From Chiloscyllium plagiosum (lineage: Eukaryota): a stretch of DNA of 30,043 nucleotides. Under the pieces are notes generated by a model. The model saw only the letters and a list, made by a program, of their open reading frames with translations, was not told where the DNA came from and made no database searches. Positions 1 to 29,188 of this stretch are shown here, one piece after another. The stretch spans positions 4,265,111-4,295,153 of the forward strand of contig NC_057757.1 of assembly GCF_004010195.1 (NCBI RefSeq). The letters run 5' to 3'. How positions within the stretch are numbered: the first letter of the stretch is position 1; every line of letters starts with the position of its first letter. The position numbers and the translations under genes are program-made.

Positions 1-3000
1 TGTCCTGTACAGCTGCAACATGACCTCCCAACTCCTGTACTCAATACTCTGACCAATAAAGGAAAACATACCAAACGCTTTCTTCACTATCCTATCTACC
101 TGGGACTCCACTTTCAAGGAGCTATGAACCTGCACTCCAAGGTCTCTTTGTTCAGCAACACTCCCTATGACCTTATTATTAAGTATATAAATCTGCTAAG
201 ATATGCTTTCTCAAAATGCAGCACCTTGTATTTATCTGAATTAAACTCCATCTGCCAATCATCAGTCCATTGGCCCATCTGATCAAGATCCCATTGTAAT
301 CTGAGGTAATCTTCTTTGCTATCCATTACACCTCCAATGTTTGTATCATCTGCAAACTTACGAACGATTCTTTCTATGTTCACATCAAAATCATTTATGT
401 AAATGATGAAAAGTAGTGGACCCAGCACCGATCTTTGTGGCACTCCACTGGTCACAGGCCTCCAGTCTGAAAAACAACCCTCCACCACCACCCTCTGTCT
501 TCTACCTTTGAGCCAGTTCTGTATCCAAATGGCTAGTTCTACCTATTTTTCATGAGACCTAACCTTGCAACCAGCCTTCCATGGGGAACCTTGTTGAACG
601 CCTTACTTAAGTCCATATAGATCACATCCACCGCTCTGCACTCATCAATCCTCTTTGTTACTTCTTCAAAAAACTCAATCAAGTTTGTGAGACATGACTG
701 CCCACGCACAAATCCATGTTGACTATCCCTAATCAGTCCTTGCCTTTCCAAATACATGTACATCCTGTCCCTCAGGTTTCCCTCCAACAACTTGCCTACC
801 ACCGAGGTCAGGCTCACTGGTCTCGAGCTCCCTGGCTCGTCTTTACCACCCTTCTTAAACAGTGGTTCCACGTTTGCCAACCTCCAGTCTTCTAGCACCT
901 CACCTGTCACTATCGATGATATAAATATCTCAGCAAGGGGCCCAGCAATCACTTCCATTGTTTCTCACAGAGTTCTAGGGTACACCTGATCAGGTCTTGG
1001 GGATTTATCCACCTTTCTGCATTTAAAGACATCCAGCATTTCCTCCTCAGTAATATGGACATTTTTCAAGATGTCAACATCTATTTCCCCACATTCTATA
1101 TCTTCCATGTCCTTCTCCACAGTAAATACTGATGCAAAATACTCGTTTAGTATCTCCCCCATCTCCTGCGGCTCCACACAAAAGTCACCTTTCTGATCAT
1201 TGTAGGACACTATTGTTTCCCTAGTTACCCTTTTGTCCATAATGTATTTGTAAAATCGCTTTGAATTCTCCTTAAATCTATTTGCCAAAGCTATCTCATG
1301 TCCCATTTTTGCCCTCCTGATTTCCCTCTTCTAAGGATTCACTCGATCTATCCTGTCTATACCTGACATATGCTTCCTTCTTTTTCTGAACCTAGCCCTC
1401 AATTTCTCTTGTCATCCAGCATTCCCAACACCTACCAGCCTTTCCTTTCACCCTGACAGGAATATACTGTCTCTGGATTCTCGTTAGCTCATTTCCCATT
1501 TTCCAGCCGTCCCTTTACCGGCAAACATTTGCGCCCAATCAGTTTTTGAAAGTTCTTGCCTAATACCGTCAAAAGCCTTCCTCCAATTTAGAACTTCAGC
1601 TTTTAGATCTGGTCTATCTTTTTCCATCACTATTTTAAAACGAATAGAATTATGGTCGCTGGCCCCCAAGTCCTTGGGCCTCTACTGTTTGTAATTTTTA
1701 TTAATAACTTGGATGAGGGGATTGAAGGATGGGTCAGCAAGTTTGCAGACGACACAAAGGTTGGAGGTGTCGTTGACAGTATAGACGGCTGTTGTAGGCT
1801 GCAGCGGGACATTGACAGGATGCAGAGATGTGGCAGATGGAGTTCAACCTGGCTAAATGCGAGGTGATGCATTTTGGAATGTCGAATTTGAAAGCCGAGT
1901 ACAGGATTAAGGATAGGATTCTTGGCAGTGTGGAGGAACAGAGGGATCTTGGTGTGCAGCTACATAGATCCCTTAAAATGGCCACCCAAGTGGACAGGGT
2001 TGTTAAGAAAGCATATGGTGTTTTGGCTTTCATTAACAGCGGGATTGAGTTTAAGAGTCAGAGGCGGGTTCTTTACACAGAGAGTTGTGAGAGCATGGAA
2101 TGCATTGCCATCAGCAGTTGTGGAAGCAAGGTCATTGGGGACATTTAAGAGACTACTGGACATGCATATGGTCACAGAAATTTGAGGGTGCATACATGAG
2201 GCTCAGTGGTCAGCACAACATCGTGGGCTGAAGGGTCTGTTCTGTGCTGTACTGTTCTATGTTCTATGTTCTATGTTCGAAGTGCTCCCCCACTGACATC
2301 CCAGTTACCTGCCCTGCTTTATTTCCTAAGAGTAGGTCAAGTTTTGCACCTTCTCTAGTAGGTACATCCACATACTGAATCAGAAACGTTTCTGGTACAC
2401 ACTCAACAAATTCCTCTCCATCTAAACACTTAACACTATGGCAGTCCCAGTCTACGTTTGGAAAGTTAAAATCCCCTACCATAACCATGCTATTATTCTT
2501 ACAGATAACTGAAATCTCCTTACAAATTTGTTTCTCAATTTCTCTATGACTATTCGGGGGTTGATAATACAATCCCAATAAGGTGATCATCCCTTTCTTA
2601 TTTCTCAGTTCCACCCAAATAACTTTCCTTGATGTATTTTTGGGAATATCCTCCCTAAGTACAACTGTAATGCTATCCCTTAATAAAAACGCCACTCCTC
2701 CTCCTCTCTTGCCTCCCTTTCTATCCATCCTGTAGCATTTGTATCCTGGAACATTAGGCTGCCAGTCCTGTCCATCCCTGAGCCATGTTTCCATAATTGC
2801 TATGATATCCCAGTCCCATGTTCCTAACCATATGCCCTGAGTTCATCTTCCTTCCCTGTTAAGCCTCTTGCATTGAAATAAATGCAGTTTAATTTATCAG
2901 TCCTATCTTGTTCTCTGTTTTGTCCCTGCCTGCGCTGACTGTTTGACTTGCTTCTGTTCTCAACTGTATCAGTCTTACTATCCCCTTGGGTCCCACCTCC

Positions 3001-5522: not shown

Positions 5523-5660
5523 TCATGGACTGTGGTCCCCCTCCTGATCTCGAAAGTGGAAGCTACGAGTACATCACCAAGCGGGACGAGACCCTGCTCC
5601 ATTCAGTCGTCAGATACAAGTGCAAGGAGGTGTATTACACAATGGTGGGCGGAGGAGATG
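5523..5660 (+). CDS. C1S-like: Internal coding exon (138 nt, phase 1-1): first half of the second CCP/sushi domain of a complement C1s-like protein
   Basis: Acceptor tttctgttccAG (5521-5522), donor GTAAGG (5661). Translates [47 protein letters not shown], which matches the C1s CCP2 pattern DCGxP...[24 protein letters not shown]. Confidence 0.9.
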
Positions 5661-6599: not shown

Positions 6600-6674
6600 G
6601 GCAGTATACCTGCCAGGCGAACGGGAAATGGATGAATAGCGAATCAGGTGACGCCCTCCCATCGTGCAAGCCAG
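6600..6674 (+). CDS. C1S-like: Internal coding exon (75 nt, phase 1-1): second half of CCP2 of the C1s-like protein
   Basis: Long polypyrimidine tract ending cctcAG (6598-6599), donor GTGAGT (6675). Translates GQYTCQANGKWMNSESGDALPSCKP(V) and supplies Cys3, Trp and Cys4 of the CCP. Joins in frame to both neighbouring exons. Confidence 0.92.
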
Positions 6675-8925: not shown

Positions 8926-9752
8926 GGGCCGGTATGGTGGCTTAGTGGTCGGCATTGACACCTCACAGAGCCAGGGACCTGGGTGCGATTCCAGCCTCGG
9001 GCGACTGTCTGCGTGGAGTTTGCACATTCTCCCTGTGTCTGTGTGGGTTTGCTCCATTTCCTCCCACAGTCCAAAGATGTGCATGTTAGGGTGGATTGGC
9101 CATGCTACATTGTCAAGAGTGTGGTACTGGGAAAGCACAGCAGGTCAGGCAGCATCCAAAGAACAGCGTGATCAATATTTCGAGCAAAAACCCTTCATCA
9201 GGAATTTTGTCCAAAAAGATTTTTGGGTTTTGCCTGAAACATCAATTCTCCAGTTCCTCGGATGCTGCCTGACCTACTGTGCTTTTCCAGCACCACACTC
9301 TCAACTCTGATCTCCAGCATCTAGAGTCCTCACTTTCACAATGGTGTCCAGGGATGTGCAGGTTAGGGTGGATTGGCCGTGCTAAATTGTCCCATAGTGC
9401 CCAGGGATGTGCAGATTAAAGTGGTTTGGCTGTGCTAAATTGTCCCATAGTGCCCAGAGATGTGCAGGTTAGGGTGGATTGGCCATGCTAAATTGTCCCA
9501 TGGTGCCCAAGGATGTGCAGGTTAGGAGGGATTGGCCATGCTCAATTGTCCCATGGTGCCCAGGGATGTGCAGGTTAGGAGGGATTGGCCGTGCTCAATT
9601 GTCCCATAGTGCAGGGATGTGCAGGTTAGGGTGGATTAGTCATGGGAAATGCAAGGTTACAGGGATGGGGTGGGTCTGAGTGGGATGCTGGTCGGAAGGT
9701 AAGTGTGGACTCGATGGGCCGAATGACCTGCTCCCACACTGTAGGGATTCCA
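8926..9752 (+). mobile_element. HE1-type V-SINE with an internal 53-bp tandem expansion, interrupted by a palindromic element at ~9113-9338
   Basis: tRNA-like head (TGGCTTAGTGG...GGTGCGATTCC), V-domain GTGGAGTTTGCACATTCTCCC..CCTCCCACAGTCCAAAGATGTGC, about 6 copies of GGGATGTGCAGGTTAGGGTGGATTGGCCATGCTAAATTGTCCCATAGTGCCCA, and a CR1-like tail. Confidence 0.85.
9113..9338. mobile_element. Palindromic Penelope-associated repeat carrying a hammerhead-like core on the minus strand (~9174-9201)
   Basis: Arms GAGTGTGGTACTGGGAAAGCACAGCAGGTCAGGCAGCATCC and GGATGCTGCCTGACCTACTGTGCTTTTCCAGCACCACACTC are inverted repeats. Minus strand reads CTGATGA-AGGGT-TTTT-GCTC-GAAA-TATT. Confidence 0.7.
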
Positions 9753-10283: not shown

Positions 10284-10632
10284 CCTTCCAGTCTCAGTGA
10301 CATCTTTGTGTATCTTCTCTGCCCCCTTCCCATGTTAATAAGATGCTTCCCACAGCAGAGCGACCAAAACCGTATGCAGTGCTCCCGATGCGGCCTAGCT
10401 CACGGCCTGCCCAATTGCAATGTGACGTCCCTCCCGCCTCTCGGAAAACCTTTTCCGCCCCCCCCCCTCCTTTGATCCCAGTCAAACGACAATCTGGGAT
10501 ATCCGGGGAGCGAGCCCTCTCCGAATTGTGACTCTGGGTCACGACCCCACTACCCCCTAACTCCCCCACCCAATCACGGTTCCACCGTACCACCGCGATA
10601 TCCATAACATTCTCTCCTCTCCTCGTTGGCAG

Positions 10633-11399
10633 TGTGCGGGAAACCAGCAGTGCCCCCATCTCTAGCCCAGCGTATCCTCGGAGGGCACCCGGCCGAAGTG
10701 GGCAGCTTCCCCTGGCACGTGTACTTCGAGAGCACCGTGTGTGGCGGGGCCCTTGTGTCTGACCGCTGGGTGCTGACCAGCGCCACGTGTGTGGAAGGCG
10801 CCGGGGGTGTGCTGCGCCTGTTCGCCGGCGGAATCGACCTGAACTCCCCAGAGGGCTGGCGGGGCCCGCTGGAGGCACGGCAGATCGTGCGGCACCCGAG
10901 CTTCGGCGGGCGCCGAGCCGGCTTCGAAGGCGACGTGGCGCTGGTCAGGCTTGGGAGCCGGGTGGAGGCCGGGCGCCACCTCTCGCCCGTCTGCCTGCCC
11001 TCCCGGCGTTCCGGCTCCCGACCCGCGGCGGGCAAGGTGGGCTACATCTCAGGGTTCGGGAGGACGGAACGCTTCGCCCAGAGCGACGTCTTGATGTTCG
11101 CCGCTGTGCCGGTGGTGGAGGAGGTGCGGTGCGGGAACCTCTCCTCCTCCGCCCGCCACGGTGGTGCCCAGCTCACCAACAACATGCTGTGCGCCGGGAG
11201 CCCAGGCATCGATGCCTGCACGGGTGATGGTGGAGGGGCCTACGTCTTTGAGGACCCACTGAAGCCTGACACCTACTATGTCGCCGGGATAGTGTCCTGG
11301 GGGATTCAGTGCGGGGCTTATGGGATCTACACTAACGTCATCAACTACCTCGACTGGATCGAGAAGACGATGGCTGAGGAGGGCGATGGTCAGAACTGA
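10633..11399 (+). CDS. C1S-like: Terminal coding exon: linker, activation site and complete trypsin-like domain of a C1s-like protein with non-catalytic residues (His57>Thr, Ser195>Gly)
   Basis: Acceptor ctcctcgttggcAG (10631-10632). Reads VCGKP...QR|ILGG..FPW, GGALVSDRWVLTSATC, FEGDVALVRL, SPVCLP, GYISGFGRTE, NMLCAG, DACTGDGGGA and AGIVSWGIQCGAYGIYTNVINYLDWIEKTM; stop TGA at 11397-11399. A single-exon protease domain is typical of C1r/C1s/MASP2/MASP3, and the C-terminal half is closest to C1s as I recall it. Confidence 0.92.
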
Positions 11400-11447: not shown

Positions 11448-11453
11448 AATAAA
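11448..11453 (+). terminator. Polyadenylation signal of the C1s-like gene
   Basis: AATAAA 48 nt after the stop codon, followed by T/GT-rich sequence (~11483-11525). Confidence 0.7.
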
Positions 11454-11609
11454 ATGCCTCTGATGAAAAAGAAACATGAGCCCTTCTTTCTGCTGCATGT
11501 TTCTGCTGGGTACACTGCTTTTGGACATCTGAATAGACCCCTCAAATCTAATGTCACTCTTTGCGGGCCTTCTTTGCAGTTGCATTTCTCTGTTCTGTCA
11601 CCCTCTGAT

Positions 11610-18196: not shown

Positions 18197-18390
18197 CCAA
18201 TGCCTTATCTTTTGGCTGACATTTCATCGCCTGTTGATTGACCCGTAACCAATCTGCCAGAGTGGCTGATTCATGGGCAGGGCAGAGTGTTAGCTGCTGG
18301 AAAGAGAGCCAAACATTGCTTGGTTGGGTGCAGGAGGCTAGTCAGAACTACTATATAAACCTGGAATTTCCAACATATAAATCACTTCAG
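18197..18390 (+). promoter_or_regulatory. Core promoter of the micro-exon gene: CCAAT boxes, TATA box, initiator
   Basis: CCAAT at 18197-18201 and 18249-18253; TATATAAA at 18352-18359; Inr-like TCACTTC with A at 18384 (32 nt from the TATA start); a second TATAAA at 18376-18381. Lies in repeat-free sequence directly upstream of a Kozak ATG. Confidence 0.7.
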
Positions 18391-18416
18391 CTAGAGGCAA
18401 ACAGCTCACTGCAACC

Positions 18417-18471
18417 ATGGAGTACCCGTGTGTGCTCCTCCTGGTCAGCCTGATGGCGGTGGTCATGGCAG
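18417..18471 (+). CDS. Exon 1 coding part: signal peptide of an unrecognised secreted micro-exon protein
   Basis: Kozak context ACCATGG; MEYPCVLLLVSLMAVVMA plus G, then donor GTAGGA at 18472 (phase 1). Hydrophobic core; an A-D-A cleavage motif is completed by the next exon. Confidence 0.82.
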
Positions 18472-18537
18472 GTAGGAATCAACATGCTTTACCTATCATT
18501 TTCTAAACTTAGACAATTCCATATCGGCTCTCGCAGC

Positions 18538-18640
18538 CTCTGGACGGAGCTCCAAGTGTCCAGTGTAGATCATGGACAGAGCTCACAGTCTCTGGACGGA
18601 GCTCCAAGTGTCCAGAGTTGACTGTGGACAGAGCTCACGG
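18538..18640. repeat. Two-copy 52-bp tandem duplication
   Basis: CTCTGGACGGAGCTCCAAGTGTCCAG...TGGACAGAGCTCAC at 18538 and 18590. Confidence 0.8.
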
Positions 18641-18864
18641 GTTGCTCTGAAGCCTTCAGACTCAGAGAGATATGTGTATATATAAATATTAGAGAGAGAG
18701 AGAGAGAGACAGAGAGAAATATTGGAGCTAGCCCCCCTTCAAACACAACAACGCTAAATGGCATTGAGAAACCATCTGCAGCCATAGGAGGGTTAGTAAC
18801 TAGATCAAGCGTTTTGCTGGGGAATAGTGAAGTATTTATGGATGGGCAGGAGGGGAATCGTCAC

Positions 18865-19040
18865 CCACTGAGTGGTTAGTTTCTGATACCAACAGCGTGG
18901 CTTTGATTCCCGCACTAGCTGAGGTTACCCATGAAGGGTTGAATCCAGATTGAATCAACCTTCTCAACCTTTCCCCTCGTGTCAGACGTGGTGACCCTCA
19001 GGTCAAACCCCCACTAATTGTCTCTCTCTAATGAGAGAGC
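18865..19040 (+). mobile_element. Degenerate tRNA-derived SINE fragment
   Basis: A/B-box-like remnants (AGTGGTTAG..TTTGATTCCCGCAC) followed by GCTGAGGTTACC..CCTTCTCAACCT..GTGGTGACCCTCAGG; recognised only loosely. Confidence 0.4.
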
Positions 19041-19390
19041 TTTCCTCTGTTTGAGCAAGATAATAGCGAGTTTACCTTTGCCTCTGAACCAACAAAAATA
19101 ATATCAATTCGCAATAGAAGCATTGAGATAATGGACAGTGCCATCAATGCCATTGAGATATTGCATAATACAATCTTGTACCCATCAGTTGTACCGTCCA
19201 TGGTTCGGTTCATTACTCAGTGTCAACATCTCAAGTTACCTTCTAAATAGTTCAACGGGCAGAAGTAATGCCTTCTGGTATTCAGAAAAAAATTAGCATC
19301 GATTTTAGCATGTGACGTTTTGTATTGAAAATGTGGTACCTCCATTTCATAGCCAGAGACTGTGCTAACACTGCGTTTTTTTCTCCCTAG

Positions 19391-19408
19391 ATGCTTTTCA
19401 CTTAGATG
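19391..19408 (+). CDS. Micro-exon 2 (18 nt, phase 1-1): DAFHLD
   Basis: Branch point GCTAAC (~19364), T-rich tract, ccctAG acceptor and consensus donor GTGAGT at 19409; stop-free in phase 1. Confidence 0.78.
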
Positions 19409-19808
19409 GTGAGTATCTGAAGACAGAGAATTGATGCTGACTCCCCTTACCATGCATTAATTCACAAAATCATTTATTGAGATACAATCTTCCACAGTCC
19501 AGAGTTGCGCAGGTTTGGTAGATTAGCCGTGCTAAATTGTGTGAGTGAGTCCTTAAATCCTGAAAATAAATGCAGAATAAAGGGTTTTGTCGAACTGCAG
19601 CTTAACTTCTGCCTCCCTATATTGCAACCCTCTAAATCTAAAGGACAGAATTCCATTAGCTTTCTCTATTGTAAATGCAGCACATGACTCCCTCAAGCTT
19701 TGAACACAAAACATTAACAGGGCAAGCTCAATGAAATGAAGTGAGGTTTGTGAAATTTCACCCAGATTTGTGCCCGCATTTCGCTGAGTGGACAGGTGAC
19801 AATATTAT

Positions 19809-20105
19809 GGGGAGATTGCTGACAGATTAATAATCCAGAACTCCAGCCAATGTTGTGTGGACGTGAGTTGGCAGGAGCTGAAATTTATAATAAGTAAAAA
19901 TCTGAATTCACACCGAGAGTTGGCCCCGATTGTCCCAAAACCCAGCTGGGTCACTAATGCTCCTTAAGGAAAGGAAATCTGCCATCCTTACCCAACCTGG
20001 CCTACACATGCCTCCAGACCCACATGGTTGATTCTTAAATGCCCTCTGGGCAATTGGGGATGGGCAATAAACATCAGCCTAGCCAGCGATACCCACATCT
20101 CACCA
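19809..20105 (+). mobile_element. SacSINE1/Deu-type SINE
   Basis: Core AAAACCCAGCTGGGTCACTAATG..GGAAATCTGCCATCCTTACC..GGCCTACACATG..CCAGACCCAC. Confidence 0.7.
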
Positions 20106-20199
20106 GCAACCTTCCAGAACCAGAAATGAACATAAACTCCATTCCCTATTTTTAGTTCAAGGTGATAATTACATCGATGTGATGGTGGAGAGAGATCAT

Positions 20200-20856
20200 A
20201 GCATTTCTACACAGTGGAAGCAGGACTTTCAGCCCATTGAGTCTACACCGCCTGTCCGAACTGCTTCCCACCCAGTTCCACGTCCCAACCCTATCCCTGT
20301 AACCCAGTATTTCCCACGGCTAACCCACCTGACCCGCACATCCTGGGACAACTTAGCAGGCCCAACCCACCCTAACCTGCACATCCCTGGGCACTATGGG
20401 ACAATTTAGCATGGCCAATTCATCCTACCCCACACATCCCTGGCCACTATGGGACAATTTATCATGGCAAATCCGCCCTAACCTGCACACCCCTGGGCAC
20501 TATGGGACAATTTAGCACAGCCAATCCACCCTGACCTGCACATCCCTGGGCACTATGGGACAATTTAGCATGGCCAATCCACCCTACCCCGCACATCCCT
20601 GGGCACTATGGGACAATTTAGCATAGCCAATCCATCCTACCCCGCACATCCCTGGGCACTATGGGACATTTTAGCACGGCCAATCCACCCTAACCTGCAC
20701 ATCTTTGGACTGCAGGAGGAAACCGGAGCACCTGGAGGAAAAGCACACTGACATAGGGGAGAATGTGCAAACTCCACACAGAAAGTCGCCTGAGGGTGAA
20801 ATCAAACCCAGGTCCCTGGTGCCATGAGGCAGCAGTGCTAACCACTGAGCCAACAT
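20200..20856 (-). mobile_element. HE1-type SINE with ~7 copies of the 53-bp unit
   Basis: Reverse complement of head (GCTAACCACTGAGCCA), V-domain and tandem units. Confidence 0.85.
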
Positions 20857-20865
20857 GTCACCTCA

Positions 20866-21362
20866 AAGATGAATAAGGCAGCTCAAAGAAAGTTCACGAG
20901 GATAATCCACAGAGTGGAGGGATTGTCTTATAAGCAAAGGCTAAACAGTTTGGGACTCTACTCTCTGGAGTTTAGAAGAATGAGGGGTGATCTCATTAGG
21001 ACATATTGGATTCTTAAGGGGCTTGACGGGGTAAAAGCTGAGAGGACGTTCCCCCTCATGGGAGAGTCTAGGACCAGAGGGCACAGTCTCAGAATAATGG
21101 GGCACCAATTTAGGACTGTGATGAGGAGGAATTTCTTCCCTCAGAGGGTTGTAAGTCTTTGGAACTCCTTGCCACAGAGAGCTGTGGGGGCAGAGTCCCC
21201 GTGTATACTGAAGTCTGAGACAGATTCAAAGGTTACGGGGAAAGGATGGGAAAGTAGATGTGAGAATGTTGAATCAGCCATGATCTTGTTGAATGACAGA
21301 GCAGGCCCGAGGGCCTGAAAGGCCTACTTCTGTTCCTATTCCATATGTTCTTACGATCTTGT
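20866..21362 (+). mobile_element. CR1-clade LINE 3' end
   Basis: QRKFTRII..GLYSLEFRRMRGDLI..TRGHSLRI..RRNFFPQRVVSLWNSLP plus a 3' tail. Confidence 0.88.
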
Positions 21363-21533
21363 AGTTCAAAGAAATGAGAATAAGCAACAATGCTTATCTG
21401 ACATTTGAACAATTAACACCGATTCCTTTTCTGTGTAACACTGAACATTTCAGTTACTGAACCAATTGTGCCTAAGATATGAATTTTTAATTCTTTCTCC
21501 GCAAACAATGATCAAATCTTTTCCACCCAACAG

Positions 21534-21557
21534 GAAAGTACCCTTTCCATGGCTACG
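21534..21557 (+). CDS. Micro-exon 3 (24 nt, phase 1-1): GKYPFHGY
   Basis: ttttccacccaacAG acceptor (21532-21533) and donor GTAAAT at 21558; GK..Y composition resembles the downstream exons. Confidence 0.68.
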
Positions 21558-21819
21558 GTAAATATATTTATTGACAGAATTTATCACATTTTGGCTGGTT
21601 AGAAAATCATAGAATTATAATGCATGCACTCTGAGAGAAATCATCCACTATCCCCAATAACAAATCCCTTCACTGTCCCATCCCATGGATCATTGATAGC
21701 TTCATCCATCTCCCAAACTAGAAAGAGGTGAAAACTTCCATTGGTTGGTTTTACTGATGGAATACATTCATCTGACCGTCTCCCACTATTCTCTGGCACG
21801 AAATTCCATCAACTTCCGA

Positions 21820-22600
21820 CACTGGATGTGAATATGGGAGGAATAGTTAGGAAGTTTGTAGATGATGCCAAAATTGGTGGTCTGGTGGACAGTGAAGATG
21901 ATTACCTAAGAGTATAATGGGACCTTGATCAGGTGGGCCGATGGGCTGAGGGGAGGTAGATGGAATTTAATTTAGATAAATGTGAGGCATTGCACTTTGG
22001 TAAGACAAATCAGGGCAGGATTTATACATTTAATGGAAGGGTCCTGGGGAGTGTTGCTGAACAAAGAGACCTTGGTGTGCAAGTTCATAGTTCCTTGAAG
22101 GTGGAGTCGCAGGTAGACAGAGTAGTGAAGAAAGTATTTGGTTCACTTGCCTTTATTGGTCACTGCACTGAGTATAGTTCTGACGAAGTGTCACTGGACC
22201 CAAAACACCAACTTTAATTTCTCTTCACAGATGCTGCCAGACCTGCTGAGCTTTTCCAGCAACTTCTGTTTTTGTCATTGAGTATAAGAGTTGGGACGTC
22301 ATGTTGCAGCTGTACAGGACATTGGTTACATCGCTTTTGGGATACTGTGTTCATTTCTGGTCTCCCTGCTATAAGAAAGATATTGCTAAACTTAAATGGG
22401 TTTATAAAAGATTTACCAGGATGTTGTCAGAGTTGTAGGGTTTGAGCTATAGGGAGAGGCTGAATAGGCTGGGACTGTATTCCCTGGAGTATTGGAGGCT
22501 GAGGGGTGACCTTATAGAGGTTTATAAAATCATGAGGGGCATGGATAGGATGAATAATCAGGGTCTTTTCCCCAGTGTAGGGAGTATAAAACTAGAGGGT
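21820..22600 (+). mobile_element. Decayed CR1 RT fragment, interrupted at 22177-22275
   Basis: KFVDDAKIGG, MEFNLDKCEALHFG, EQRDLGVQVH and GLYSLEYWRLRGDLIEVYKIMRG. Confidence 0.85.
22177..22275 (+). mobile_element. Short Penelope-associated insert with a decayed hammerhead motif and an 11-bp target-site duplication
   Basis: GTT-CTGACGA-AGTGTC-ACTG-GACCC-AAAAC..AAC; flanked by CACTGAGTATA (22166-22176) and CATTGAGTATA (22276-22286). Confidence 0.65.
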
Positions 22601-22794
22601 GAGATGGTGACTTTCTTAACCCCTGTAGTCAGTTACAGTCCTTTTTAGGGGCAATTGACAGGCACTTAAAGAGCCCCATTTCATCACATGCCTACTCATC
22701 TGCCCTGCCCCCACAGAGGACAACACAAGGGGTTGGATTGTTGACTTCTAAACTGTAGAGATCTGCCCTGGAGGGTTAATGAAGGGTCAACTTC

Positions 22795-23075
22795 CCATTG
22801 TGGGACAATTGGAGACAGGGACATGGGGGAACACCCATTGTCCAAATCCTGGGGCATCTGGAATTAGGGAAGGAGGAATCTCCCATTGTCCAAATCCTGG
22901 GGCAACTGGAATTAGGGAAGAGAGGACCTCCTTTTGTCCGAATCCTGGGGCAACTGGAATTAAGGAAGGGGGAACCTCTCATTGCCTGAATCCTGGGGCA
23001 ACTGGAATTAGGTAAGGGAGGGAATGACCCCCACCCCCCCCACCATTGCCCTAGTCTTAGGGTAATTGGAATTAG
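22795..23075. repeat. 48-bp minisatellite, 4 good plus partial copies
   Basis: AATCCTGGGGCAACTGGAATTAGGGAAG at 22845, 22893, 22941 and 22989 (period 48). Confidence 0.9.
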
Positions 23076-23449
23076 GGAGAAGGGGTGGACTTTGGAATTC
23101 TGTTCCACACACACCCTCTCAGAGGGTTGTGGATTCTCAGGCACTGAGTAAATTCAAGACAAACATTGGCAGATTTCTCATTGCTAATCATATCAAGGGA
23201 CATGGGAGCAGCATAGCGAGGTAGATAATCAGTCACTGTCTAGAATGGCAGAGCAAACACAAAGGGCTGAATGGCCTTAGAGTCGTAGAGTCATTGATTG
23301 GCCCAGGTTAACAGTTCCCAATCAAGGATTTTGCAGTCAATGAGATCCACCCACTTCCAATCACTACAAAGGAAATGGCTGAACGTATTATTTTCCAATG
23401 AATTCTCTACAATGTTCAGTAACAGATCTGTTTCATTTTTCTCCAACAA

Positions 23450-23470
23450 TGGGACCTGTTTATGGTCCAG
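23450..23470 (+). pseudogene. A-type micro-exon copy (VGPVYGP) with mutated acceptor (AA); probable pseudo-exon
   Basis: ctccaacAA|TGGGACCTGTTTATGGTCCAG|GTAATG versus ccaacAG in the paralogous copies. Confidence 0.6.
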
Positions 23471-24111
23471 GTAATGCCTTCAATTCCAATGATCAATCAA
23501 TCTAAAAGTGATAGGAATAAAGAAAAAAAGCTAATCAATGAATGATTATGTTGAGTTTTTAGCCATGGACTAGATTCAAACAAGTCCCTGTTAAATTGTC
23601 CTAAATATAGTTTTGGCATCTGAAGGTACTGACAGGGAATGTCAGGACCGATCAATATACAGGGACAATATGAGCACACTATTCCAACGTTCAAAAGCCA
23701 AGGCATTTTGAACTGAGATGAGGAGGAATTCCTTCACTCAGAGGCAAGGGTGAATCTTTTGGAATTCTCTCCCCCAGAGGCTAGTGAAAGATCAAACATC
23801 AAGTAAATACAGGCCAGAGGTTTGAAGGTTTCTAAATTCTACTCATCTCAAGGGATGTGAGCGTGGTGGGGGAACGTGGCATGCGATAGATGATCAGCCG
23901 CGCTCTAAAATGGCAGAATAGGGTCAAAAGTCTAAACAGACTTCTCCTGTTCCCCATGTATCTATTATTTTAATGTTGCGAACAGAAACACAGCCCCCCA
24001 GATTGGATGATTCTGAATGATCCAAATGTTAAACCGATTGAGCTGAAAATGTAAATGTGCGATTGACTCTCTGCTGACACCGTTCATTAACACAATGTGT
24101 TTATTCCACAG

Positions 24112-24132
24112 GGAAAAGATATGATGATAAAG
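24112..24132 (+). CDS. B-type micro-exon (21 nt, phase 1-1): GKRYDDK
   Basis: tttattccacAG acceptor and donor GTATTG at 24133; paralogous to 28717-28737. Confidence 0.72.
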
Positions 24133-24508
24133 GTATTGTCTTTAAATGTATAAGTCGGTTACTGCAAAGGAATTGGGGCAGAGTCTGTGAGCAATAAACG
24201 GTTTTGATGACAGACAGACACTAACCCCGTTCATGTAACAATACCCTGAACATTAGCATTTATTGTTTTGTTGCAATGTTTTAAAGTGAGTGAAGTTTTC
24301 AATCTAACCATATTTGGTCATGAAACAGATACATTTCATCATGAGAAGATATATAAAGAAAAAGTGAATAGTTTAATATCTATGTGAAAGTTAGAAGAGA
24401 TGAATAAATTGTCATAAAATTGGTAAGAATTCGAAAGTTCCCTGATTATTTCATATGGTAACTCCAGTCAATAATACGTTCCGTTCTGAATGAACCCCAG
24501 TAGTTGAA

Positions 24509-24735
24509 TGGTGAAATACTGCACAGAGGCCAGTATCCCATCATCAAGTCACCCTTTATTTACATGTGGACAGCACATTGGCTGGGGTCAGTCAGCTCGG
24601 AGGCAGTCCCTCAAGTGAGGAGGTTCTGAATCTGCAGTTGAAATTTATCTCCCAGGGCTCCCTGATTGACCCAGGTTAAGAACCACAATCAAGGATTTCA
24701 TAGTCAATGAGATCCACTTGGTCCCAACCACTCCA
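24509..24735 (-). mobile_element. Solo-LTR-like insert (~227 bp, TG...CA); homologous copies at ~23295-23368 (partial) and 25351-26882 (split by nested inserts)
   Basis: Absent at the homologous position of modules 4 and 5; begins TG and ends CA; minus-strand AATAAA (TTTATT at ~24555). Confidence 0.55.
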
Positions 24736-24819
24736 AGGCAAAGTGCTGAAAATATTACTTTCCAATGAATTCTCTACAATGTTCAGTAACAGATCTGTTT
24801 TGTTTTTTTTTCCCAACAG

Positions 24820-24840
24820 TGGGACCTGGTTACGGTCCAG
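24820..24840 (+). CDS. A-type micro-exon (21 nt, phase 1-1): VGPGYGP
   Basis: Poly-T tract, cccaacAG acceptor and donor GTAATG at 24841. Confidence 0.78.
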
Positions 24841-25179
24841 GTAATGTCATTACTTCCATAGATCTGTTGATCTAAAAGTGGTAGGAACAAAGAAGTAGAC
24901 CAATCAATCAATGATTGATTCTTTTAACAACATTTGGGTATTAACCAATTACATTTCATGAAGAGAAGATAAAGAGAAAATATGCAATGTGAATAGATTG
25001 GTATCCATTAAAACGTTAGAAGAGATGAATAAATTGCCATAAAATAAGTAGGAATTGGAAAGTTCCTTGAGCTTTTCATAGGGTAACTCCAATTGACCCT
25101 GGCAGAATAAGGTCAAACAGCTAAAGAGTTTTCTCCTGTTTTCATGTATCTTTTAATTCTGCAAAGTGAAACACCGACA

Positions 25180-25303
25180 CAACCACCCGATGAAGGAGCA
25201 ACACTCCCAAAGCTAGCGCTTCCAATTAAACCTGTTGGACTATAACCTGGTGTTGTGTGATTTTTAACTTTGTCCACCCCAGTCCAACACCGGCATCTCC
25301 AAA
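25180..25303 (+). mobile_element. Penelope-type terminal-repeat fragment with a decayed hammerhead motif
   Basis: CAC-CCGATGA-AGGAG-CAACA-CTCC-CAAA-GCTA-GCG followed by AATTAAACCTGTTGGACTATAACCTGGTGTTGTG; both core boxes carry one substitution. Confidence 0.55.
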
Positions 25304-25789
25304 TACAAGCACAGAGACTGTGTAATTCTGAATTAACCTTATTCGTTGAATGGTGAAATAACTGCATGGACACCAGTATCCCCTCACCAAGTCACCTTTT
25401 ATTTACAGTACGTTGGCTAGGGCCAGCAGGTCAGAGTCAGTCCCTGAAGTGAGGAGATTCTGAATCTTCTTTTTTTTATTTTATTAAACAACTCACAGTT
25501 TACAAAACAATTAACATTAACAGTTGTACACAGAGAAACAGCAATTTTACAAGGGAGAGGAGCAACAAAGACAGGCCCCAAACCCCACCATTCAACCAGT
25601 TTTCAGGCAATGAGGACAAATCTCAAATCCCACATTTCATCAATACAAAACAGTAAGTACATATAAGACTGTCCAATTACATAAAAAACACTGCATAAAA
25701 TACAGACCCCCAGCAAACCAGCAAGCCACCCACTCTAAGGCAGCCCAACTCTCCTGTTTATTTTTATTTTTCTTCTTTATTTTGTTTTC

Positions 25790-26785
25790 TCTATTCTCTT
25801 TTTAAATTTTTTTCTCTTTTTCACTACTGCCTAACTGTGGTTGTGCTTACTTTTTCTCCAGCACCCATGTGTGTGGGCAGGTGTGAGACATAGTGACAGA
25901 CACAAGGTGTGCAAATCTTTAGATTAGACTCCCCAGAGTGTGGAAACAGGCCCTTCGGCCTAACAACTCCACACCGACCCTCTGAAGAGTAACCCACCCA
26001 GACCTGTTTCCCCTCTAACTAATGCACCTAATACTATGGGCAGTTTAACATGGCCAGTTCACCTGAACTACACATCTTTGGACTGTGTGAGGAAACCAGA
26101 ACACCCAGAGGAAACCCATGCAGACACAGGGAGAACGTGCAAACTCCACACAGGCAGTCACCTGAGGCTGGAATCGAACATGGGACCTTGGTGCTGTGAG
26201 GCAGCAGTGCTAACCACTGAGCCACCACAGGCATTAGACTATTCAGTTTCCACTACCAGGAAGAAAAGAAACACCCAAGTGGCCAGTGGCAAGTAGTGGC
26301 CTTCACATCAAAGGGCAATGCTGTGTGATCAAACAGTGAAGGGGAGGGAAGGGATTAAATCAGCTTTCCTGTTTATTGGTTTCTCTCTCAGAGCTCACTG
26401 GATGTGGGCAGCTGGTCCAGAGACAGTCCCTTCCCATCTGACACAAACAAGGGGAGAGTCCTTGTACACACACACACGCGCTGATCCAGCTCCCTTAAGA
26501 GCCAGCTCTCAGAGTGAACAGAACCTCTGACATTCTTGTTTTTTAAATTCTTTTTTTCTTTTTTCTCCCCCCAAGTGCTTATTTTTTCCCCAGCACCCTT
26601 GAGTGTGTGTGCAGGTGTGCGACACAGTGAAAGACACAAAGTGCACGAATCTATATTCAGTTTCCACCACCAGGAAGAAAGGAAACACCCGAGTGGCCAG
26701 TGACAAGCAATGTCCTTCATATCAAAGGGCAATGCTGTGTGATCAAACAGTGAAGGGGAGGGCAGGGATTAAATCAGCTTTCTGG
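25790..26785. repeat. Two direct copies of an unclassified ~250-bp repeat (first: ~25790-25920 + 26241-26368; second: ~26540-26785)
   Basis: CCAGCACCC..GCAGGTGTG.GACA.AGTGA.AGACACAA and ATTCAGTTTCCAC.ACCAGGAAGAAA..GGGATTAAATCAGCTTTC each occur twice. Confidence 0.7.
25921..26232 (-). mobile_element. HE1-type SINE, full length, without tandem expansion
   Basis: Reverse complement of the A box (GCTAACCACTGAGCCAC), B box (GGAATCGAAC), V-domain and tail. Confidence 0.88.
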
Positions 26786-26967
26786 TTTATATCTATTACC
26801 CAGGGCTCCCTGATTGATCCACATTGACAAGCCCAATTAAGGATCTCATAGTCAATGAGATCACTTGGTCCCGATTACTGCACGGGAAAGTCCTGAAAAT
26901 ATAATTTTACAACTAATTCTCCAGAATATTCCGTAACACATCTGTTTCGGTTTTTTTCCTCCAACAG

Positions 26968-26988
26968 TGGGGCCTCTTTATGGACCAG
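26968..26988 (+). CDS. A-type micro-exon (21 nt, phase 1-1): VGPLYGP
   Basis: ttttttcctccaacAG acceptor and donor GTAACA at 26989. Confidence 0.72.
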
Positions 26989-27639
26989 GTAACATAATCA
27001 ATTCCATAACATCTGTCGATCTAAATGTGATAGGTCCGAAAACATAGGCCGATAATAAATAATAATGCCAAGGTCTTAGCTATGAACTAGATTCAAACAA
27101 ATCTCTGTTAAATTGTCCTAAGCCTGTTGCTAGTGTCGGAAGATACTGACGGTAATGTGTCAAGTCTCCATCAGGACTGGTCAATATCCAGGGACAATGT
27201 GAGCACACTATTCCACATTCAAAAGCCAAGTCATCTTGATCCTAGATGAAGAGGAATTTCTTCACTCAGAGGTGGGGAGGGCTGTATCTTTGAAATTCTT
27301 TGCCCAAGAGGCCATTGGAAGATCAGTCATTGAGTATGTTCAAGATGGAAACTTACAATATCTCCTCATATCCAGGGCTATGGGTATGGTGTGGCAACAT
27401 GGCATTGAGATAGATGATCAGCCACACTCTAAAATGGCAGAATAGGATCAAACTGCTAAATAGCCTTGTCCTGTTCGCATGTATCCATCATTCTTTTAAC
27501 TTTGTGAAGAGAAACGCAAATCCCCACACTGTGCAATTCTGAGTGAATCAAATGTTAAACCGATTGAGCTGAAAATGCAAATGTGTGATTGACTCTCTGC
27601 AAACCACTGTTCTTTGCTACAGTGTGTTTTTTTGCACTG

Positions 27640-27660
27640 GGAAAAGTGATGATGGCAAAG
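27640..27660 (+). pseudogene. B-type micro-exon copy (GKSDDGK) with mutated acceptor (TG); probable pseudo-exon
   Basis: tttgcacTG|GGAAAAGTGATGATGGCAAAG|GTGCTG versus ccacAG and GTATTG in the paralogues. Confidence 0.58.
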
Positions 27661-28118
27661 GTGCTGTCTCTCATTTTAGACATCGGATTCTCAAAAGGAA
27701 TGAGGGTAGAGTGTGTGAGGATTAAACAGTTTTCATGACAGAGATACCAACCCCTTTCCTATAAAAATGCCCTGAACATTAGCATGTATGGTTTTGTTGC
27801 AAAGTATTAATTGGGTGAATTTTTATATTCTAACCATATTTGGCCATGGACCAAATACATTTCATTATGAGAAGATATAATGAAAATTGGCAATGTGATG
27901 AGATTGATATTCATTAGAAAGTTAGATGAGATAATAAATTGCAATAAAATCAATAAGAATTAGCAAGTGCATTGAAAATTTCAAATATTAACTGTAATTA
28001 ATAACCTGTTCAACTTTGAACGAACCACAATTGTTCAACAGAAAGTGATGAAAATATAATTTTAACATTAATTCACTACAATGTTCAATAACACATCTGT
28101 TTTGTTTTTCTCCAGCAG

Positions 28119-28139
28119 TGGGATCTCTTTACACTCCAG
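28119..28139 (+). CDS. A-type micro-exon (21 nt, or 24 nt from 28116; phase 1-1): (A)VGSLYTP
   Basis: tttttctcCAGCAG tandem acceptor and donor GTAATG at 28140. Confidence 0.68.
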
Positions 28140-28716
28140 GTAATGTCTTTAGCAGAAATGTTAGTCGTCAGCTACGCTTGAACACATCCCTGTTAAATTT
28201 CCTTAAATATATTGTTGCTTGCAAAAGATACTGATGTTATTGTATCAAATCTCCATCAGGACTAGTCAATAACCAGGGACAATGTGAGCACACCATCCCA
28301 ATGTTCAAAAGCCAAGGCATTTTGAACTGAGATGAAGAGGAATTCCTTCACTCAGAGGGGTGTGAACATTTGGAACTGTCTTCCCCAGAGGCTGGTTGAA
28401 AATCAGTCATTGAGTCAGAAACTGTCAGATTTCCAACATCTCCTCATATCAAGGGTTATGGGCATGGTGAGGGAACATGGCACTGAGATAGATGATCAGC
28501 CACACTCTAAAATGGCAGACGAGGGTCAAGCAGCTAAAGGGCCTTCTCCTGTTCCCCATCGGTCTCTCATTCGTTTAATTCTGCAAAGAGAAACACAGTT
28601 TCACAGACTTGGTAATTCTGATTGAAACGAATGTTAAATACATTGAGGTAAATATGTAAATTTGTGATTGACTCATTGCAAACACTGTTCATTAACACAA
28701 TCTGTTTATTCCACAG

Positions 28717-28737
28717 GGAAAGGTTATGGCCAAAAAG
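28717..28737 (+). CDS. B-type micro-exon (21 nt, phase 1-1): GKGYGQK
   Basis: tttattccacAG acceptor and donor GTATTG at 28738. Confidence 0.74.
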
Positions 28738-29167
28738 GTATTGCCATTTAATTTCAGGAATCAATTTCTCCAAAGGAACTAGGGCAGAGAGATTGAGCAA
28801 CAAACAGTTTTGATGGCAGGCAGACAAAACTCATTTTCAAAAACAAAACCCTGAACACCTTACTGCAGTGTATTATTTGGGTGAATTTTTATATTCTAGC
28901 TATTTTTGACCATGGACTAAGCACAATTAGATATAGAGAAAATTGGCAACATAAATCAACCGATATTCATTAGAAAGTTAGGAGAGGTGAATAAATTGTA
29001 TTAAAATCGATAAGAATTATAAAGTACAGTAAAATTTTGAAATAGTATTTGTAATCGATAATCTGTTTAGCTCTGAATGAACCCCAGCTATTCAGCGGCA
29101 AGTTCTGGAAATATAATTTTGCAATTAATTCTACAATGTTCAGTAACATATTTTTGTTAGTCAGCAG

Positions 29168-29188
29168 GGAGACCTGGTTACGGTCCAG
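29168..29188 (+). CDS. A-type micro-exon (21 nt, or 24 nt from 29165; phase 1-1): (A)GRPGYGP; gene continues beyond the window
   Basis: tttttgttagtCAGCAG acceptor (weaker tract) and donor GTAATG at 29189. Confidence 0.62.

Follow-up and report, generated by a model that had tools for sequence, protein, structure and literature searches.

Haptoglobin is the precedent for a dead protease within the C1r/C1s/MASP family, a secreted protein made of a CCP and a protease domain in which the cleavage site is kept. MAp44 and MAp19 are family members without catalytic activity that form dimers by way of CUB-EGF and act as competitors in the lectin pathway; they are splice forms without a protease domain and retain the collagen site. 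Active C1s has the layout CUB1-EGF-CUB2-CCP1-CCP2-SP, and residues E45, Y52, D53 and D98 of its CUB1 form the calcium/C1q site and are given as C1q-binding residues in PMC4222235. The preference for a C1r/C1s heterodimer is ascribed to CUB2 contacts in human C1 (PMC5789954). C1r and C1s homologues are reported in nurse shark plasma (PMC9207270), and according to reviews (PMC6795676) cartilaginous fishes are without MBL, ficolin, C1qA/C1qC and a working MASP2, so that an extra initiation-type protease pair in these animals bears on how complement is triggered.

Here we describe a transcribed, conserved pseudo-protease gene of the C1r/C1s family that occurs in all three groups of cartilaginous fishes. 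It is a real and conserved gene of which the literature seems to hold no account: a full-text search, whose coverage extends to a minority of subscription papers, returned no description, and PMC10707392 yielded nothing relevant to it. What is new is its apparent mosaic origin, the transcript evidence, the selection acting on it and the exclusion of haptoglobin. With it the C1r/C1s/MASP family gains another pseudo-protease of independent origin besides haptoglobin, one that appears to be a C1r/C1s mosaic.

By tblastn on 140 kb around the window (the whole 30,043-nucleotide stretch of Chiloscyllium plagiosum DNA that was analysed) and a frame check, we resolved the gene into 7 exons encoding 509 aa, with AG/GT splice sites and no internal stops (Table 1). 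From N- to C-terminus the product comprises a signal peptide (judged by eye), a CUB, a calcium-EGF, a single CCP and the dead protease domain. This is the module order of C1r/C1s/MASP proteins (CUB, calcium-EGF, CCP, chymotrypsin-type domain) but not the C1s layout, as the CCP exon is joined in frame to the EGF exon, which leaves a single CUB and a single CCP where C1s has a pair of either, and no CUB2, a point missed in the initial annotation. Orthologue models have the same CUB-EGF-CCP-SP layout. The splice acceptor, open reading frame and poly(A) signal annotated at exon 7 are all present, and the upstream exons are unbroken. The EGF-CCP intron contains broken LINE-type reverse transcriptase and endonuclease pieces on the minus strand (window 165-2842; Pfam RVT_1, Exo_endo_phos), and the last intron a tandem repeat of about 7 copies of a 53-base unit (window 9288-9665). 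The ORFs scanned in window 18197-29188 gave no Pfam match above the cut-off.

Table 1. Features of the dead-protease gene. Plain numbers are positions in the window; orthologue counts refer to the cartilaginous fish domains.
Feature	Position	Strand	Evidence or remark
Window	G000:C48:4265111-4295153		no N in it
Exons 1-4	C48:4252379-4264403		outside the window, upstream
Exon 1 ATG	G000:C48:4252379		in-frame TGA upstream of ATG
Exon 5, first half of single CCP (sushi)	5523..5660	+	tblastn 72% to whale shark orthologue; Pfam Sushi; AG/GT, phase 1
Exon 6, second CCP half	6600..6674	+	tblastn; AG/GT; 3' end = contig loose end at 10630, 4/4 runs
Exon 7, linker Cys, activation site, entire dead serine-protease domain, to stop	10633..11399	+	Pfam Trypsin E=9e-46
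Exon 7 ends			AG acceptor before 10633; TGA ending at 11399
Arg15-Ile16 activation site (CGT/ATC)	10671..10676	+	Arg15 in 16/16 orthologue rows covering the site; Ile 15, Val 1
Cys42...Ser55-Ala-Thr57-Cys58, His57 lost (ACG Thr at 10785, TGT Cys58 at 10788)	10740..10790	+	C42, S55, C58 in 17/17; position 57 S 13, T 3, A 1
Asp102 kept (GAC)	10932..10934	+	D 16/17, N 1/17
Asp189 (S1 pocket; GAT at 11211), Gly193, Asp194 kept; Ser195 replaced by Gly (GGT at 11229)	11211..11231	+	D189, G193, D194, G195 each 17/17
Cys codons of exon 7 (n=8)	10635, 10740, 10788, 10992, 11130, 11190, 11217, 11310
AATAAA and poly(A) addition point	11448..11474	+	AATAAA at 11448; end of X8 contig, in a run of A, at 11474

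The catalytic residues had been read initially as Thr57 and Gly195, with Asp102, Asp189, the R-I activation site and eight Cys retained, and every one of these coordinates is right. The His57-Asp102-Ser195 triad of C1s is absent as a set, and the protein is predicted not to cleave C4 or C2. The suggestion that GGT lies one step from an AGY serine codon fits the AGC codon found at Ser195 in the active neighbour described below. Aligned to human C1s (E=7e-54), exon 7 places T on H57 and G on S195, the best haptoglobin chain scoring 9e-34, and human C1s is the best solved relative both by sequence and by fold. An AlphaFold model built with 121 sequences (used instead of one with 9 sequences, which at pLDDT 47 was unusable) reached pLDDT 90 with a chymotrypsin-type fold, its top Foldseek match being C1s (TM 0.87). 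The pairing of Cys42 with Cys58, also overlooked at first, is not a C1s feature: among the protease rows compared it occurs only in MASP1 rows, unrelated proteases and the dead clade, and in none of the C1r, C1s, MASP2 or MASP3 rows.

The 17 orthologous domains, taken from sharks, rays and one chimaera, formed a single clade with support of 100 in a quick tree of 103 protease rows, and the 7 retained in a careful tree again formed a clade (100/100). The loss, which the initial annotation had proposed to look for in other sharks and rays, is shared by them: His57 and Ser195 are gone in 17/17 and Gly195 is present in all; position 57 is Thr in 3/17. Cys42, Cys58, Asp189, Asp194 and Gly216 are present in all 17, and Gly226 in 16/17; the zebra shark agrees with them. 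Over 45 species pairs (10 species), mean identity is 59% for the dead domain and 65% for the active neighbour. The chimaera-elasmobranch split is dated to about 420 million years ago (PMC6238376).

Of 11 runs with matching contigs, four were compared (X1, X2, X5 and X8, from four studies and none recorded as RNA). Exon 7 contigs are spliced in 4/4, starting at the acceptor with a loose end that corresponds to the preceding exon, and in X8 a run of A begins 21 bases past AATAAA. In X1, X2 and X8 all differing letters are accounted for and none lies inside codon 57 or 195; X5 likewise has no difference in these codons among those listed, with 7 further rows unlisted. Since no contig carries a differing letter there (for X5, among the rows listed), restoration of His or Ser by correcting an assembly error is excluded at both codons. 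Relative to the assembly, the coding changes listed for X5 comprise 22 synonymous and 13 non-synonymous (pN/pS 0.20, p=4e-6), and the ratio would be 0.31 if all 7 unlisted rows were counted as non-synonymous; the 4 and 5 coding changes of X1 and X2 are every one synonymous. With its fold kept, its catalytic residues lost, purifying selection and transcription, the gene has the properties of a pseudo-protease and is neither an error nor a pseudogene.

An active C1s paralogue, which the initial annotation had proposed to look for nearby, is present on the same strand, its stop lying 2,204 bases before the dead-gene ATG. This neighbour (G000:C48:4235059-4250175, +) is a CUB-EGF-CCP-CCP-SP gene with TAAH, Asp102 and GDSGG. 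It ends in a separate stop codon followed by AATTAAA, and hammerhead C1s2 falls in the same group; contigs of it occur in X1, X2 and X8 (3/4 runs), in which both genes are therefore represented. Its activation site reads R-I/V-L-K/R/H-G-S and not R-I-x-G-G in 10/10 species aligned.

Two readings would deny the gene its separate identity. According to one, the two genes together encode a single long protein that carries both protease domains, the active and the dead, as fused models in 13 shark and ray records of about 650-1860 aa imply in their active-then-dead order (P0001-P0007, P0012 in part, P0017, P0277, P0279, P0287 and P0306). RefSeq XP_043539566.1 of C. plagiosum, whose second half is identical to the dead-gene protein after exon 1, fuses the two, and PMC11312191, in which the word "inactive" does not appear, adopts Tryp_SPc-CUB-EGF-CCP-Tryp_SPc as the chondrichthyan C1s-like layout. 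Against this, the CUB exon is joined to the dead gene's own first exon in 4/4 runs and never to the active protease exon, the active gene ends with its own stop and AATTAAA, the fusion linkers vary between species, and the two genes are modelled separately in white shark, catshark and chimaera. A minor read-through could escape the run contigs, since these drop rare variants, but a single long protein is very improbable. The database models wrongly fuse two genes, and the "C1s-like" models of roughly 1,050 aa are two genes; this corrects the annotation, and with it the fused layout that PMC11312191 takes as the primitive C1s form. In chimaera the active and dead models are on different contigs, so tandem linkage is supported in sharks and rays only. 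According to the other reading, the locus is an error of assembly, a pseudogene in decay or the haptoglobin of the shark, and in its favour is a dead triad in a family to which haptoglobin belongs. We reject this, as the open frame over 7 exons and the 22 synonymous versus 13 non-synonymous changes listed for X5 speak against decay, and as a separate haptoglobin gene exists at G000:C426, with haptoglobins as its best PDB matches and 67% identity to the named nurse shark haptoglobin. A topology grouping the dead gene with haptoglobin was rejected (p-AU 0.012), so the independence from haptoglobin proposed initially holds. Haptoglobin also lacks CUB-EGF, carries different substitutions (TSAHA and DHGA in nurse shark) and takes a C1r-side or unresolved position in protease trees, whereas the dead gene groups with C1s.

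The trees used haptoglobins from sharks only and left out C1RL and human sequences; the careful trees were hand-picked subsets of 43, 27 and 28 rows, the 103-row protease set being a quick tree only, and the AU tests of reverse placements were chosen after the first trees had been inspected. In a protease tree of 27 matched rows the dead gene grouped with C1s (100/97), and grouping with C1r was rejected (p-AU 0.0075); its protease domain also lay inside the C1s clade in the careful tree (98/94). By CUB-EGF (27 rows), it grouped instead with C1r (100/99) while the active neighbour grouped with C1s (96/86), and a dead-gene-plus-C1s topology was rejected (p-AU 0.015). A 47-row CUB-EGF tree, from which 7 redundant or partial modules were left out and 3 others could not be extracted, again placed it with C1r (97/99). 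These CUB-EGF placements come from only 154 columns, with a long stem (1.05) and shark C1r absent from the set; composition could pull the dead gene toward C1r because C1r CUBs are less acidic than C1s CUBs, although the make-up flag of treekit was raised in neither tree. The CCP tree placed the single CCP outside the haptoglobin pair, with too few columns to place it with C1s over C1r. The description of the gene as "C1s-like" consequently stands for the protease domain but not for CUB-EGF, and that of its CCP as C1s rather than haptoglobin stands only in the exclusion of haptoglobin. As sisters by CUB-EGF, the dead gene and its active neighbour were rejected (p=0.032); by protease domain the same arrangement was neither supported nor rejected (p=0.34).

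Because its CUB-EGF is C1r-type and its protease domain C1s-type, the gene is apparently a mosaic, and we infer that it arose when a C1r copy and a C1s copy were joined through deletion or exon conversion. With C1s, including hammerhead C1s1 (BAU69613) and C1s2 (BAU69614), it shares a single-exon protease domain, clade, Arg-Ile activation site and Asp189, but it differs in having Cys42-Cys58, in lacking His57, Ser195, CUB2, one CCP and the C1q residues, and in a CUB-EGF that is not C1s-type. With C1r it shares the grouping of CUB-EGF, a module that would pair with a C1s-type one, but not its protease domain, CUB2, CCP1 or C1q site.

Equivalents of E45, Y52, D53 and D98 are found in 2, 0, 1 and 0 of 11 dead-gene orthologues, making a direct C1q decoy unlikely; in the active neighbour Y52, D53 and D98 equivalents are absent (0/8 each) and E45 is kept in 6/8. 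CUB2 is missing from both genes alike, and the EGF calcium motif of the dead gene is intact. The role in the shark C1 complex first suggested loses ground, since the protein has neither a CUB2 nor the CUB1 residues for binding C1q collagen. The dead CUB has a pI of 9.9 vs 5.3 for the neighbour, and its net charge is +1 to +9 (11 rows; just +1 in Mustelus, Narcine and Pristis) vs -7 to +3 for the neighbour and C1r and -2 to -9 for most C1s. When dead and neighbour CUB-EGF were folded together with calcium in ESMFold2, without an alignment, the pair scored 0.61 vs 0.00 for the best control (contact agreement between runs at least 86%, partner pLDDT at least 71); a pass is what the resemblance to solved C1r/C1s/MASP dimers would lead one to expect, the score may simply reproduce those structures, and it cannot name the family partner. 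The pass mark was reached by 51/78 solved vs 2/108 mismatched microbial pairs and by 39/65 vs 2/126 eukaryotic ones. Conservation is a little higher in the columns of the predicted interface than elsewhere (0.79 vs 0.70, p=0.047), and the dead gene has C1r-type residues there, such as H718 (His in 5/6 C1r, Asn in 6/8 C1s).

We tentatively favour the reading that the dead protein is a non-catalytic partner of its active neighbour in a C1q-independent C1r/C1s-like dimer, over two alternatives discussed below. It would form a dimer with the active short C1s in the presence of calcium and be the chain that does not cut, its C1r-type CUB-EGF pairing head-to-tail with the C1s-type CUB-EGF of the neighbour, as C1r does with C1s. 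Such a dimer would act outside classical C1, because neither chain has a C1q site; the basic CUB face may dock it on polyanionic surfaces, and once cut at Arg15-Ile16 the domain would have an intact S1 pocket for Arg in which a substrate or inhibitor loop could be held, uncut. The pairing, the targeting of surfaces and the use made of this pocket are inferences. Tandem linkage, the presence of contigs of both genes in X1, X2 and X8, complementary CUB-EGF types, the intact EGF calcium motif, the C1r-type residues at the predicted interface and the loss of both C1q sites speak for a partnership. Set against it are the ascription of human C1 heterodimer preference to CUB2 (PMC5789954), which both genes lack, the absence of tandem linkage from the chimaera models, the short, long-stemmed CUB-EGF tree without shark C1r, and the low CUB charge of three genera. 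It is a further and doubtful step to propose that a second "mini-C1", independent of C1q, has persisted in cartilaginous fishes over about 420 million years, in which a C1s-type enzyme is joined by a C1r-type dead chain that does the targeting through its dead domain and basic CUB; if true, this would be an undescribed way of starting or tuning complement.

One alternative is a brake on classical C1, in which the C1r-type CUB-EGF captures full-length C1s1 and keeps it from C1r, much as MAp44 and MAp19 compete in their pathway, the dead domain adding nothing catalytic. A C1r-type interaction module with an intact EGF calcium motif would suit such a competitor, and full-length C1s1 genes are present in the same genome (C41). 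A pure competitor, however, has no need of a protease domain, yet this one retains 59% mean identity across 10 species (65% for the active neighbour) with invariant S1 and activation residues; in addition, the collagen site used by MASP-type competitors is missing, and an intact C1r protease exon was not found in the assembly, possibly owing to a gap. Unlike MAp19 and MAp44, the dead gene is a separate gene that kept its dead domain and lost the site. We consider a brake rather unlikely. The other alternative, which we judge slightly less likely still, is a stand-alone plasma binding protein resembling haptoglobin, a homodimer that has nothing to do with the neighbour and uses its dead domain to bind a ligand, receptor or serpin. 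In its favour are the haptoglobin precedent, the separate emergence of similar short dead forms in lungfish and newts, and the invariant Cys42-Cys58 pair and Ser55, which suggest a remodelled, selected surface; it would leave unexplained the conserved tandem linkage and why the neighbour lost CUB2 and the C1q site as well.

Short, triad-damaged C1s-like models also occur in reedfish, loach, lungfish, newts, an anole and a turtle. The forms of reedfish/bichir (XP_051788087, XP_039619704), loach, lungfish and newt resemble the shark gene in lacking CUB2 and in their damaged triads, and those of reedfish and loach also in their CUB-EGF-CCP-SP layout, Gly195 and C1r-leaning CUB-EGF, but the protease domains of the short forms outside sharks group with the C1s of their own lineage. 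A single origin of the shark gene with the lungfish and newt forms was rejected (p=0.00016). With the reedfish form alone it was not (p=0.32), so the dead chain may date back to the jawed-vertebrate ancestor.

Several further relatives were seen in the C. plagiosum assembly. MASP2-like CUB-EGF exons lie at G000:C34:11351573-11357050 (-), and further MASP2 exons were not found in 26 kb downstream, in agreement with reports of a protease-less shark MASP2 (PMC6795676). Heptranchias has an intact C1r-side protease domain; a search of the assembly for an exon orthologous to it, part of which was pre-filtered more strictly, did not find one (best 45-49%), and a gap is possible there. A C1r-side single-exon protease domain with Thr195 (GDTGG), common to Heptranchias P0160, is at G000:C10:14142365-14143207 (-); the 42 kb upstream held no CUB or CCP exon and one weak EGF match about 29 kb away, and this is possibly another weak or dead family member. 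A paralogous C1s protease exon with GDSGG is interrupted and spread over two reading frames (G000:C41:18991083-18991566, -). Lastly, a full-length-type C1s protease exon at G000:C41:19704003-19704755 (+) keeps His57 and Asp102 but reads GDAGG (Ser195Ala, GCT), where its relative P0240 in Chiloscyllium punctatum has GDSGG; it may be another dead copy, an allelic variant or an error.
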